Made by a program: the position numbers and the translations under genes
Shown: positions 7,492 to 23,030 of the stretch, piece by piece
Layout of the letters: each line of letters begins with the position of its first letter
Numbering within the stretch: the first letter of the stretch is position 1
Notes under the pieces: generated by a model
The model's database searches: none
Told to the model about the DNA's origin: nothing
The model's input: the letters and a program-made list of their open reading frames with translations, nothing else
Assembly (NCBI GenBank): GCA_963732225.1
Contig: CAVSYR010000004.1
Coordinates: 82,710 to 146,709, forward strand
Source: an uncultured Solirubrobacterales bacterium
GTDB lineage: Bacteria > Actinomycetota > Thermoleophilia > Solirubrobacterales > 70-9
Length of the DNA stretch: 64,000 bases
Direction: 5' to 3'

Positions 7492-7862
7492 GGATCAATT
7501 TGTTGGGGCGATTTGGCCTAGCCGGAGGAGTTGGCTTGTTTAGGCCTTTAGCGGCCTCAAATCCGTGTGCTGCACGGCTATCTATAAGAACGACAGCGAG
7601 CCATAACGGTGCCCATTGCCTTCGACCGCGGGACGGTGAGCGCTCGCCCAGAGCGGTTTGGAGGCTGCTGCGGCGTCCAGGCCACAGTTGCTGTGGATGT
7701 TCGCTATCCGAGAGGGTTTCGGGTCAAAGCACAACCCCGGCAGGCGCAGTTGCGCAGAGCCGCAAGCTCCTGGTCTAGCTCGTCACCTACGCAGACACTG
7801 CCCACCGATGCGGCGGCCGGATCGGGCAGGGTCGAAGCGATGATGCAATGGCGCCCGATCGG

Positions 7863-8159
7863 CTACTGGATCTGAGCGCTGAAAGCGAGAGTGCCGAGAG
7901 AATCGCCGGCGTGGAAAGACGTCTTTGCCTGCGGCGAAGGGCTGGTTGGAGTAAGTGGCGGTGCCGGTGGTCAAGGTCAGCGGCGCGGCGAGATCGCGAT
8001 CGTGCGGGCGAGCGGGTCGGAGGCCGAGCCGGCGGAGCTAAGGTCGAGGATCGGCACTTGGCCGAGCTTTTGGGCGGTGGATCGGGGTTCGATCAGCCAA
8101 TCCAGACCCCCTTTCGCGGCTGCAAGCACGGCACCTGGCGGCGTCCTCGGTCGCCCCAA
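7863..8159 (-). pseudogene. Orphan 3' fragment (distal copy) of the C-terminal domain of gene 8664-10001
   Basis: Pieces from ORFs 7977-8159 and 7783-7974 read KLGQVPILDLSSAGSASDPLARTIAIS..APLTLTTGTATYSNQPFAAGKDVF.AGDSLGTLAFSAQIQ* after at least two frame corrections. It has its own TAG at 7865-7863. It is collinear with the last ~90 aa of the 445-aa protein. Confidence 0.6.
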
Positions 8160-8271
8160 TAGCCGTTGCTATGGGGCTTCCTGCGTCGCGTTGCCAGGCT
8201 TGGCTTTCGCTCGCGAGAACCGGGCCTGTCTAACGGGCCGAACCCCTCCCCCCGCTTAAGCTTAGGATTGA

Positions 8272-8550
8272 TCACTGCGCCTGCGCAACAAAGGTCGCGG
8301 CACCGAAAATCTCGCCCGGATGAAAGGTGTCTTTACCGCCAGCAAAGGCCTGGTTGAAATAGGCAGCGGTGGCCTCAGTCAAGCTGAGGGGAGCCCCTGC
8401 AACGGCGATCGTGCGCGCCACCGGGTCACTGCTAACGGCTCCGGCGCCTAAGGCAAGGACTGGAACCTGTCCCAGCTTTCCAGGGAAGGTCGGTGCCGGC
8501 TCCTCATCAATTCCGCCCATCTGCTCTGCTCCCGCTCGGGCGGAATCATC
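8272..8550 (-). pseudogene. Orphan 3' fragment (proximal copy) of the C-terminal domain of gene 8664-10001; in frame, with a possible ATG at 8520
   Basis: The tail of ORF 8272-8667 reads MGGIDEEPAPTFPGKLGQVPVLALGAGAVSSDPVARTIAVAGAPLSLTEATAAYFNQAFAGGKDTFHPGEIFGAATFVAQAQ*. The intact gene ends VEPTPTFPGKLGQISIAGIDLAPATINSDPKARTVSVGGAALTLSPQTAETFNEAFAKPQGKADVFRAGESLGTISFTAQTQ*. Confidence 0.6.
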
Positions 8551-8663
8551 ACAACCAGAGATCTTCCGCCCGAGCTCCCGCGTCCGCGATGGGCGGGTTT
8601 GGTGGGACCTGCTCAGGTTCTGTGACTCAAGCGCTGGGGGCGGAAGTTGGCGGCGACATACGG

Positions 8664-10001
8664 TCATTGTGTTTGGGCCGTGAAGGAGATGGTCCCAAGT
8701 GATTCACCGGCACGAAACACGTCGGCTTTGCCTTGAGGTTTGGCAAAAGCTTCGTTGAAGGTTTCGGCCGTCTGTGGCGAGAGGGTAAGAGCGGCTCCGC
8801 CGACGCTTACTGTGCGCGCCTTCGGGTCCGAATTGATCGTCGCAGGGGCCAAGTCGATCCCAGCGATCGATATCTGGCCTAGTTTCCCCGGGAAGGTGGG
8901 AGTGGGCTCAACGTCGACTTCGACGAGAGTCGTTGTGGCGGCAGGTTCGAGCCATGGTTCATGCCAAAACACCTGTCCAGCGCCCAGTTGCAGGTATTCG
9001 ATGCCACCGCCCAACCGGATTTGGCCGCTGCGACCGTCGGGGGCGATTACGCCCGAGCCGACGAAGGGAAATGTGAAGAGAGGGCCCGGCTGCCGTTCGC
9101 CTGGAGATATTGGATTGAGAGAAACGAAGAGACTGTCGAGCTTGACGATGAAGGCGGGGTCGGGCGTCAGGGTGGCGCGACCGACGGGCAGGATCGCGAC
9201 GGTGGCGGGCTGGGCGGTGGAGCGCAGGGCGCCGAGCCGCTGGCCGGCTTCGAAGACGCCGTGCAGGCGCAGCTTCTTGGCGAGGCGGGTGGCGAGCTTC
9301 GCCGAGAGGCGTAGGTCGCTGGCGGTGAAGCTCGAGCCGAAGCCGGCCCGGGAAAAGCTGCGCTTCTTGGCGGCGGCCAGTTTGAGCTGACCGCCGCCGA
9401 CCTTGGCGATCAGCGGTTCCGGCTTTGTTTTGACGACGATCTCGCGCAGCGGGACGCGGTGGGCGCCGCGCTCGAAGACGAGGGCGCCTTCCTGGTCGAT
9501 CTCGCCCTTTTGCTCGGCGGGGTCGAGGGCGCCGCCGGAGACCGGCATCGTGTAGACGTGGCCGCTGCGCTTGGCGGGCGCCGTGGCCGTGAGCTCGACG
9601 CCGTGGGCGGCGAGCAGCCGGACGAAGCCCTTGTCGAGGGTCAGCTTCGTGATGCCACCACCTAGAGGGTCGTAGGTGGCGTTCGCTGAGGGGGCGAACG
9701 TGAGGAGCGCTGTGGCGAGAACGCCACCTAGGAGGGCGGCGAATCGGCCGTGGCGGCGATTCGACCGGACGATGATTGGGGACGGCGGACCTTGGGCGTG
9801 GTTGGCAGGGCCCTCTGGCAATCCCGGGGATGAGTCAGATTGCGACCCGGGATTGCCGGAGGGCTGGTTTTGAATAAATGCCGCATGTCCTCCGCTCCCG
9901 CTCGCTGACGCTCGCTCCCGCGTCCGGGCATGCGGCTGCCCGTCAACCCTGTGAGGTTCACGCTGTGCAACCCGGGTCAGGTTTGCGGCTGGCGGGTTCA
10001 T
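8664..10001 (-). CDS. Secreted or membrane-anchored protein (445 aa) built from two related halves
   Basis: The ATG overlaps the upstream stop (ATGA at 9998-10001). Hydrophobic segment RFAALLGGVLATALLTFAPSANA. The ~85 aa before that segment are low-complexity, so the true start is uncertain. There is a loose, unverified resemblance to HtaA-type domains (...LTL..TAE.FN.AF....F..GE.LG). Confidence 0.7.
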   Translation of the reverse strand: MNPPAANLTRVAQREPHRVDGQPHARTRERASASGSGGHAAFIQNQPSGNPGSQSDSSPGLPEGPANHAQGPPSPIIVRSNRRHGRFAALLGGVLATALLTFAPSANATYDPLGGGITKLTLDKGFVRLLAAHGVELTATAPAKRSGHVYTMPVSGGALDPAEQKGEIDQEGALVFERGAHRVPLREIVVKTKPEPLIAKVGGGQLKLAAAKKRSFSRAGFGSSFTASDLRLSAKLATRLAKKLRLHGVFEAGQRLGALRSTAQPATVAILPVGRATLTPDPAFIVKLDSLFVSLNPISPGERQPGPLFTFPFVGSGVIAPDGRSGQIRLGGGIEYLQLGAGQVFWHEPWLEPAATTTLVEVDVEPTPTFPGKLGQISIAGIDLAPATINSDPKARTVSVGGAALTLSPQTAETFNEAFAKPQGKADVFRAGESLGTISFTAQTQ

Positions 10002-21048: not shown

Positions 21049-23030
21049 CAGTAGCTCACTCCTCGTGGGTTGAGTTGCGTTTTCCCCTCTCCCACGGGGA
21101 GAGGTGTTCCTGCGATACCAATCCGCTCGCCTTGCCCCGCTCGCAAGGAGAAGGGGTCGAGCGCCTGGGTGAGACGAAGGTCTGAACTACTGGGCAAATG
21201 GGGCCCTAGCGGGGACGAAAGCGGCGGGGCGGGGGGACACGGGGAGAGCGCCACCAGCACGGCAGCCGGTGGACCGAGATGATTCGGATCGGTGGGCGCC
21301 CGAGGTCCCGTTGCCATAGGCTCGGGGTCGGTCTCGATTCTGATCTGATTGGCCGAGCGGTCGGCCGCGCTGCGGTGCCTCACTTGTGACTCCTGTCGAT
21401 GGTGGACGGTGCTTGGCGCTCGTGGTCTCCGCCGTTGCGGAGAAGTGACGTCCGAGGCGCCCCTGCAACCCTTCTCCAACCCTGGTCGCGTCAGAAGTTC
21501 GGCGAGGCCGTGGCCAGTTGTGATCATGTGCTGGGTACCGGCTCTCTGCCGGCATCGTGGGTCTAGTCGATGGCTTTGGCTTTCCTCGTGTGTAGTTGTG
21601 CGTCTTCCCCCTCTCGCCCGGCGATGGCGTCACGTGGGGCGGTCGGCCGAAGATCTGAAGTCGGAAGCGGGGGGCGAGAATGGGGCGCTGGATTCTTAGG
21701 TGCGTTGGCTGCCGTTGTTGCCGTGGATGCCGGTGTTGCCTTTGGCACCATTGCCTCTCCAGGAGAGGGTGCTGCTTGTAGTTGCGTCTTCCCCTTCTCA
21801 GCGCGCGATGCGCTCGAGAAGGCCGTAGGTCGAAGGTCTGAGGGCGACTGAGCGGCGCCCAGCGGGGGCAACCCCGACGTCAAGTTGACGGTCCTGCCCG
21901 CCGGCATGGACGCCGACGACGCGAAGCGCCTGGCGGCCTTGCCGTCGAGCGGGGCAAGTGGATGGGTGAGGTCCTCGCGAACTGGTCCGCAACGCTGAGG
22001 GTGCCCGCTATCCTCTCCCCCGCGCACCGCTGGCGGCGGCGGGCACACTGCGCGCCACGGCGTCCTCGGTCGACCGTGTAGCGCTGCTACTACGGTCTCC
22101 CTGCGTCCTTGCGGCGCTTGGCCCGGCGCTCGCCAGCGGCACACGCGGGCTCGGGTCGAGGGCACTAACTGCAACTGCAAGATTTGGATTAGGGTGCAGC
22201 GACGGGGTGTGGACGGTGGCCCCCGGGGCGGTGTCGGAGCTCGGGGCGCCAGCTGCCACTGCGGCGGTTAGGTAGACCGACCCGGGGGGGCGAGAATCGC
22301 TCGCCGAACCCTTAGACGTGTTGGCTGCCGGTGATGCCGTGAATGTCGTGGTTGCCGTTGGGCCCAACTCCTGCCTTCTCGTCCTGAGAAGCGGTCGGCG
22401 TCGATTCGAAGGTCTGAGGCCAGGGCCGCGGAGCGAGCGACAGAGAGCGCTGCAGCCCCTAGCCGCAGCAGGCCCTCGCGATGGGCTGAGGGGTCTTGGG
22501 CGACCTGCTCTTGGCCGGATTGCCCGATCTGGTCGAGGCGAAGCTGGCTGCCGCCGGCGCCTACCCGCAGCAGCAGCGCGGCGCTCGGGTCGAGGTCGGG
22601 ATCAGCGGCGAACTCGGCGGGGGGCGAGAATCGTCAGCTGCGCCCTTGGACAGTTGTGATGAGAAGGCTTCAACACCAACACCCTCGAGGGCGCCGGCGA
22701 GTTCAGCTCCCCCCCACTCCGCCGCGCCAAAGACAGCGGCGGGCCCGGGAAGTCGAAGGGAGCCAACGGCGGGTGTCCGATCGGCACGCCAAGGCGAAGC
22801 GAAGCCGGTGCGGCTTTGGCCTGCTGCCCTTTCACTGCGATCGGTCCTCCCTGGTCCTGGCCGCTTCGCCGCTGTCCCGATTCGCACCAGTTGCGAATCC
22901 CCTGACCGCGGCGGGTTGGCCGTTTTCATCTCCTCAGTCCGGGGAGCCGATCCGCGTTGCCCTTCCGGGGCGCTGCGGTTGTCCTCCCTGGACCGGATTT
23001 AATGAGAACAGATACCTACCAGAATGTCAA
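21049..23030 (-). promoter_or_regulatory. Expanded ~2-kb leader of cassette copy 2: shared upstream block plus tandem degenerate leader units
   Basis: Core 22829-23030 matches 7291-7491, including TTGACA at 23030-23025. The minus-strand motif CAGACCTTCG recurs at 21175-21184, 21831-21840 and 22407-22416, and at 7021-7030 in copy 1. GATTCTCGCCCCCC-type motifs recur at about 21675-21690, 22280-22295 and 22620-22635. Track ORFs in this region are Pro/Arg/Ala-rich and unconvincing. Confidence 0.45.

Follow-up and report, generated by a model that had tools for sequence, protein, structure and literature searches.

Why should the last part of a gene for a secreted protein recur twice, without the rest of the gene, directly behind that gene's own stop codon? 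This question is raised by a locus in the window analysed here, that is, a stretch of 64,000 nucleotides (nt) from an uncultured Solirubrobacterales bacterium (assembly GCA_963732225.1, contig CAVSYR010000004.1, positions 82,710 to 146,709 of the forward strand). The gene, called W below, ends a surface-protein operon, and its two partial downstream copies are called the orphan tails c2 and c3. The genome that was searched (G000) is a metagenome-type assembly of 3.0 Mb in 7 contigs. The reading that we favour, and hold to be likely, is that c2 and c3 are the displaced original 3' ends of earlier versions of W, left behind after a foreign C-terminal domain had been recombined into the gene. What is observed is that W is a mosaic, that the orphans have the allelic identity of other types of the gene, that an orphan of the same lineage sits beside the gene of the closest relative, and that W and its orphans share no substrate for recombination. 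The three features in question are the following.

8664..10001, minus strand: gene W, longest open reading frame (ORF), 445 amino acids (aa), described from the ORF list, Pfam HtaA, an AlphaFold 2 (AF2) model and Foldseek

8272..8520, minus strand: orphan c2, an intact 82-codon frame that matches the last ~78 codons of a group-I gene (P0010 subtype)

7863..8124, minus strand: orphan c3, a decayed group-I tail (P0008 subtype) with two frameshifts and a degenerate 5' end

The basic geometry of the locus is as the original prediction had described it. The tail of W recurs twice downstream in the same orientation, each copy with its own stop, at 8664, 8272 and 7863 (TGA at 8664-8666 in W, TGA at 8272-8274 in c2, TAG at 7863-7865 in c3), with spacings of 392 and 409 nt. 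The part of W repeated in the orphans is its last ~80 codons. When the whole genome is searched by tblastn with the last 94 residues of W, c2 is found with E = 9e-19 and 49% identity, and c3 with E = 1.7e-5 and 37% identity in one frame, with two internal TGA codons; apart from these, the search returns only tails, namely those of five full-length paralogs located on another contig. The proximal copy had been said to be in frame with a possible ATG at 8520, and c2 is open from the ATG at 8520-8518 for 82 aa. The distal copy had been said to need at least two frame corrections, which in c3 are a -1 shift near 7990 and a +1 shift near 7913-7917. The strong divergence, put at roughly half of the residues, is borne out by amino-acid identities of ~53-56%. 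At the nucleotide level, the W tail, c2 and c3 are 55-60% identical, and they are about equidistant from one another and from the paralogs on contig C2. On the structural model of W, the orphans cover residues ~275-358, which amounts to half of domain 2 (its final strands and a helix), and such half-domains are predicted to be unable to fold alone. A tRNA scan found no tRNA-derived attachment site near the locus.

The first part of the answer lies in W itself, which falls into segments of different ancestry.

9081..9656, minus strand: body of W, of group-I ancestry (ORF residues 116-307), from window identities and synonymous divergence (dS)

8667..9080, minus strand: C-terminal domain segment of W, type II, the putative imported piece (ORF residues ~308-445), from identity, dS and the approximately unbiased (AU) test

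Residues 116-295 of W are 80-95% identical, in 30-aa windows, to the group-I proteins P0004, P0006, P0007, P0008, P0010, P0011 and P0012, and in sliding windows this identity falls to ~50% past residues ~296-310. Against P0003 and P0005, the values are 60-80% in the body and 83-93% beyond residue 311. The switch between the groups falls just 3' of the conserved GRATLTPDPAFIAKLDSLFVSLNPIAPAER stretch. Synonymous sites give the same two-part picture: for the body of W, dS is 0.26 against P0010, 0.22 against P0008 and 0.24 against the nearest relative, P0002; for the C-terminal domain, it is 1.44, 1.61 and 0.50, respectively (1.3-1.6 for group I, 0.5-1.0 for P0002, P0003 and P0005). The AU test on residues 300-445 rejects a grouping of W and P0002 with group I (p = 1.6e-18), and the test on the body rejects a grouping of W with the partners of its C-terminal domain (p = 6e-6); the groups were named post hoc, after the data had been seen, and the effect is very large. 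Restricted to the last 84 columns, the test is marginal (p = 0.041), and the decisive test is that of the whole replaced segment. The nearest relative differs for the 5' leader with signal peptide, for the body and for the C-terminal domain. The signal peptide resembles that of P0009 most, and not that of the nearest relative, so that the 5' end of W constitutes a third mosaic segment. At the level of sequence, these comparisons establish W as a recombinant of a group-I body and a type-II C-terminal domain.

The second part of the answer concerns the types to which the orphans belong. The last 80 residues of the closest homologs of W fall into two classes. The tails of P0002 and P0003 are W-type (83-85% identical to W), and those of P0006, P0007, P0008, P0010, P0011 and P0012 are 55-59% identical to W, 72-87% to c2 and 77-84% to o41, an orphan found in the closest relative (see below). 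The best counterpart of c2 is the 3' end of the full-length P0010 gene (locus L046, from another metagenome), with 91% nucleotide identity over 200 nt, 87% amino-acid identity and a dS of 0.41; the P0010 gene itself is 80.7% identical to the body of W in nucleotides. Likewise, the P0008 gene is 80.5% identical to the body of W and 78.6% identical to c3, and o41 shares 84% amino-acid identity with P0007 and P0008. A tree of the last 84 columns joins c2 with P0010 (support 95), places o41 and a further orphan, o45, with P0006-12, and sets W with P0002 and P0003 in a separate clade. The dS between orphans and their full-length counterparts (0.38-0.41) is of the same order as that between W and P0002 (0.40-0.50). 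Both c2 and c3 are, thus, closer to genes of other genomes than to W or to each other, which identifies them, as far as sequence can tell, as the tails of alternative group-I allelic types of the W gene.

The same arrangement recurs in relatives, where the orphans are accompanied by structured repeats that also separate W, c2 and c3 in the window.

8508..8601, minus strand: element A, a palindromic repeat between the stop of W and c2, whose 3' arm holds the ATG at 8520

8122..8214, minus strand: element B, a slightly degenerate copy between c2 and c3

The closest relative, L041, comes from a different metagenome and encodes P0002, which is 84% identical to W. Its layout is that of G000: the main gene, ~90 nt of orthologous 3' flank, element A and the orphan o41. 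This orphan has been called as a 98-aa gene; it extends ~20 codons further 5', and its 5' start carries the group-I signature (HELWFDPDTHQVLAEAD; it begins HELWFDPDTHQVLAEADIKPTPTFPG). Synonymous divergence pairs o41 with c3 and not with c2, since dS is 0.44 between o41 and c3 (0.40 between W and P0002) and 1.3 between o41 and c2. When o41 was tested as a mosaic of c2 and c3, the pattern was star-like, without clear tracts. A third, short contig, L045, holds the c3 ortholog o45 (78.7% nucleotide identity over 267 nt, frame intact), which shares the degenerate 5' end of c3 and has element A and a truncated element B in front of it. L041 and L045 have a single orphan each, of the c3 lineage. Both c2 and o41 have the short motif AATTRATKAGGAG on their 5' side (direct reading), which is weak evidence and fits a deletion of c2 in the relatives. 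In L041, a cluster of copies resembling elements A and B, some of them internally deleted, occupies positions 7733-8600, 3' of o41; such elements seem to collect in the stretch that follows W-type genes.

Elsewhere the orphans are missing. The relatives L046-L050 (group I) carry a single gene without an orphan, an orphan is likewise lacking in the relatives L042 and L044 (type II), and no relative examined has tandem full-length copies. A six-frame search with c2 in 162 genomes of the genus revealed no other array of a main gene plus orphan, the small matches being full genes with a frameshift or the ends of contigs.

A group-I body and a type-II C-terminal domain in W, with group-I orphans behind them, form the pattern expected if the C-terminal domain was replaced and the old 3' end was left downstream. 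The ancestral gene at the locus would have been wholly group I, and DNA of a diverged type-II relative would have recombined into it. The left crossover was probably homologous, in the well-conserved stretch at residues ~270-307, and the right end would have been joined illegitimately inside the resident gene, near residues ~343-362. Such an event would bring in a hairpin repeat and ~90 nt of 3' flank along with the new domain and its stop codon; rather than being replaced, the last ~80-100 codons of the resident gene would move downstream. The two subtypes of orphan could stem from successive replacements (c3 being the oldest, followed by c2 and then by the type-II domain) and a subsequent deletion of c2 from L041 and L045, or else from a later insertion of c2 in G000. 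Both the kind of join and the order of these events are what we infer.

Several points weigh against this account. P0003 and P0005 have a type-II C-terminal domain without any orphan, which means that a replacement need not leave a relic. The orphan c2 itself is known from G000 alone, and must have been lost in L041 and L045 or gained here; a metagenome scan for its orthologs returned two full-length genes only, at 63-65% identity. Three of the orphans (c2, o41 and o45) keep their frames, and the sole internal indel of o41 is an in-frame deletion of 9 nt. On their own branches, these three have 12 synonymous to 10 non-synonymous, 9 to 11, and 8 to 9 changes, respectively, so that the ratio of non-synonymous to synonymous rates (omega) is ~0.3-0.45, below the neutral expectation. 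Finally, the two frameshifts of c3 could partly be sequencing errors. As regards omega, the counts are small, the branches partly predate the displacement, and relics rich in G and C at third codon positions push the ratio down; the low values are an unexplained hint and not evidence of function.

The orphan c3 is decaying, to judge by its sequence: since its split from o45, its branch has accumulated 21 non-synonymous and 9 synonymous changes, and its omega is ~0.7-0.85 (0.71 against o41). Neutral evolution of the fragments had been named at the outset as what would speak against their use. It is seen in c3, near-neutral and frameshifted, and not in c2, where the frame is intact and omega on its own branch lies below the neutral value. 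The intactness of c2 is probably due to its younger age, or to chance, and we take the orphans to be non-functional.

The closest parallel, by analogy, is offered by the orphan modules of Rhs and contact-dependent inhibition (CDI) systems. Orphan rhs-CT/rhsI and cdiA-CT/cdiI modules lie downstream of the main rhs and cdiA genes, for example in Salmonella Typhimurium LT2; the Rhs orphans keep upstream homology and are reactivated by recombination with the main gene (PMC3967940). Like c2 and c3, they are promoterless 3' fragments that follow a full-length gene directly and in its orientation, and they resemble displaced older ends. The type of an orphan is, as for c2 and o41, that of the C-terminus of the main gene in another genome, and their origin is ascribed, as here, to the exchange of C-terminal modules between lineages. 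Unlike the toxin module of these systems, c2 and c3 correspond to half of an HtaA/CR-like beta domain, with ~50% identity between types. There is no immunity gene at the locus, and the spacers are hairpin repeats without a conserved ORF. Unlike the Rhs orphans, c2 and c3 retain no upstream stretch identical enough to recombine with W. The host also differs, being an actinobacterium of Gram-positive type (Solirubrobacterales), and no type VI secretion system or CDI context was seen.

Gene conversion systems, such as pilE/pilS of Neisseria and vlsE of Borrelia, rely on conserved flanks, often on dedicated sequences, and on many intact cassettes, and convert frequently. As with c2 and c3, the variable part of a surface gene exists there in incomplete copies that lack a promoter and lie near the expressed gene. 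The present locus, unlike these systems, has two copies, one of which is broken, with neither usable homology nor any sign of conversion. The suggestion that the copies might be silent cassettes or orphan modules divides into two: that they are orphan C-terminal modules is supported, as they are tails of alternative types beside a recombinant W, and that they are active cassettes within this genome is not supported, as no tract beyond 9-11 nt is shared, no conversion is visible and c3 is broken.

A more ambitious reading would see in the C-terminal half of the CR/HtaA-like domain a circulating polymorphic module, of which the tails form a selected, heritable archive that can be reused by deletion-fusion or DNA uptake. 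Elements A and B might then act as joining sites, and the archive, if true, would be the non-toxin counterpart of Rhs/CDI orphan arrays. We regard this as improbable. The related reading of an allele archive for switching, in which selection keeps the orphans as spare C-terminal half-domains, to be fused to the expressed gene by deletion or recombination (as Rhs orphans are) or swapped in after DNA uptake, so that a surface-exposed domain varies, appears slightly less credible again. It could draw on the intact frames of c2, o41 and o45 with their branch omega below 1, on the fact that the orphan tails are true C-termini of full-length genes elsewhere, as with the Rhs orphans (PMC3967940), and on a W family that is visibly modular and recombining, given that the segments of W have different nearest relatives. 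What it meets at this locus is a lack of material to work with. The longest exact match of W is 9 nt with c2 and 11 nt with c3, and shuffled orphans reach 9 nt on average and 12-13 nt at most; W and the orphans share no tract beyond these 9-11 nt, and matches at the shuffled level provide no substrate for homologous (RecA-type) recombination. Mosaic tracts derived from the orphans had been proposed as a sign of such exchange. In the segment compared, W and its ortholog differ at 33 sites, of which W agrees with c2 at 6 and with c3 at 5, and the ortholog agrees with them at 14 and 12; no such tract and no sign of conversion is visible there. Furthermore, the orphans start at residues ~343-362, and the types differ from residue ~308 onwards, so that a simple fusion would produce a hybrid half-domain. 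One of the two copies, c3, is broken, and orphans beside a main gene occur in one lineage only, among the 162 genomes of the genus and ~10 fetched loci.

Another possibility is that c2 (and o41) is a small expressed gene, translated from the ATG of element A. Gene callers have predicted proteins of 82 aa and 98 aa (P0121 and P0122), and in both genomes the orphan continues the frame of the ATG that element A carries in its 3' arm, with a GGGAG/GAGGA motif upstream of this ATG. The nature of element A argues otherwise. The copy at 8508-8601 folds with -54 kcal/mol (z = -5.1), and the candidate start of c2 at 8520 is buried in the outer, closing stem of this hairpin; compensatory changes are found in 13/21 of the pairs. 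The ATG and the purine motif belong to the consensus of a repeat that occurs at ~11 unrelated sites, and are paired in a very stable stem, in which the GGAGG of the 3' arm faces a 5' run of C. The outer stems of the two window copies have covaried (CCGCCCAT/ATGGGCGG and GCCGCATG/CATGCGGC), which has given rise to spurious ATGs. Translation would yield half of a beta domain, and no signal peptide would precede it. A small-protein search of 5.8 billion clusters returned only 3 such proteins (the window's own ORF, o41 and o45), and a promoter and terminator scan at the locus found nothing above chance, hence no promoter-like site. Expression of c2 as a gene is, on balance, very doubtful.

In the same place, a 131-codon ORF (8272-8667, minus strand) has an ATG that overlaps the stop of W (ATGA) and crosses element A into c2. 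It mimics translational coupling, but in DNA so rich in G and C the frame is probably open by chance.

A plain decayed tandem duplication, the other origin first proposed, would have copied the 3' end in situ, or whole genes that later suffered internal deletions. The regular spacing of ~400 nt, the single orientation and the visible decay of one copy would all suit it. It does not withstand the comparison with other genomes: c2 and c3 are 91% and 78-79% identical in nucleotides to genes and orphans of other genomes, versus 55-60% to W or to each other, and the tree sets both apart from W, each grouping with foreign genes. The spacers are also unrelated, one being element A and the other element B, and relatives lack tandem full-length copies. 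Such an origin is, therefore, highly improbable. Scarcely credible is an assembly artefact in which strain variants of one metagenomic population were strung in tandem, a risk that a metagenome-type assembly of 7 contigs does carry, as the main gene with its orphan recurs in independent assemblies of other samples (L041, L045) and as distinct, unique spacers, not repeated flanks, separate the copies.

With displaced 3' ends retained as the likely origin of c2 and c3, the repeats between them deserve a description. Element A measures ~66-95 nt and is dispersed in ~11 copies over the genome, two of them in the window (8508-8601 and ~9880-9936, minus strand). It has the form GCCGCCCCCGGACGCGGGAGC, a variable hairpin and GGGAGCAGAGGAGGCGGC, and commonly begins directly after a TAG or TAA stop. 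The other copies lie on contigs C5 (909930-909995, 333235-333300, 205852-205917, 196087-196148 and 433939-434005), C2 (920129-920194, 720480-720545 and 885803-885868) and C3 (50997-51057) of G000. Element B measures ~100 nt, and its window copy at 8122-8214 folds with -47.8 kcal/mol (z = -4.0). There are 16 exact-core copies elsewhere in the genome, at ~22010-22108 (minus strand) of the window and at 15 more sites in G000. Its form is ..CAAGC..AAGGACGCAGGGAG, a hairpin and CGACCGAGGACGCCG.., with variable, covarying outer stems. In relatives, element B is found at L046:533-602, L049:4928-4997, L041:6036-6105 and L042:6114-6183, directly 5' of the start of a W-like gene, whose start codon follows the GAGGA of the element by a few bases; element B may be intercistronic and bear a ribosome-binding site. 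An Rfam search of the region, of the whole window and of the second element-B site gave nothing relevant for either element, and both are undescribed structured repeats without an Rfam match.

A repeat of this kind also affects the other end of W. The conserved protein is ~358 aa long (8664-9740) and consists of a signal peptide followed by two tandem HtaA/CR-like domains. The 445-aa ORF is too long, for paralogs and homologs have ~355-365 aa and begin at the signal peptide. The first ~85 codons of the ORF (9741-10001, minus strand) are probably non-coding, structured sequence, which includes the following feature.

9810..9936, minus strand: putative non-coding composite element in the N-terminal extension of W, made of A' (~9880-9936) and a hairpin with 19-bp arms (9810-9864)

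The predicted folds have -31.5 and -37.7 kcal/mol. Sequence of a like make-up sits 3' of the P0010 gene in L046, as judged by eye and unaligned. Near the signal peptide there is neither ATG nor GTG, and the true start of W is uncertain, given that the nearest in-frame start, a TTG at 9821-9819, sits in the hairpin arm.

The family of W comprises 918 matches at E <= 1e-10, which are secreted proteins of ~355-365 aa (overall range of homologs 350-370 aa), and one of them bears the name Solirubrobacterales bacterium. The hidden Markov model (HMM) of PF04213 (HtaA) scores 27.5 bits against residues 305-420 of W (cut-off 24), a weak match above the curated threshold, and several homologs have a precomputed PF04213 match. 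The AF2 model, built with 49 homologs, has a predicted local distance difference test score (pLDDT) of 94.4 and contains one beta-rich domain in two tandem copies. Foldseek aligns it to 6jsa with a template modelling (TM) score of 0.79, a root mean square deviation of 3.3 and a probability of 1.0, which places it in the CR-domain fold; a profile search of PDB sequences with W gave no alignable match. In fold and Pfam family, W is like HtaA, HtaB and ChtA, the corynebacterial haem-binding surface proteins with CR domains (PDB 6jsa, 8smu and 9o0k), and like them it is secreted or surface-located and has tandem domains. Sequence identity to these structures is just 13-18%. Unlike the corynebacterial proteins, W is found in the context of operons of giant propeller/FN3 surface proteins.

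The five full-length paralogs of W lie on contig C2 of G000 (8368-9405, 113696-114739, 252724-253770, 632309-633436 and 966665-967717) and share ~55% identity each with W. A homolog of the 284-aa upstream gene lies before every one of them. Among the five, the 3' ends agree in DNA to 84-94%, and this suggests that whole surface-protein cassettes were recently amplified or have evolved in concert.

For annotation, the locus carries three warnings: the called genes of 82 aa and 98 aa are relics, the annotation of W as a 445-aa ORF reaches too far, across a repeat element, and structured intergenic repeats in Solirubrobacterales can supply spurious start codons. With regard to mechanism, it is a fresh example of an already known type of relic and involves no new mechanism. 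Its value lies in the clean and datable trace of an allelic replacement, at the level of a domain, in a secreted protein from an uncultured soil lineage; the old tail left behind reveals the direction of the swap. For the family, the locus shows that the two-domain HtaA-like proteins of Solirubrobacterales evolve by modular recombination, and it hints at diversifying pressure on the C-terminal domain.

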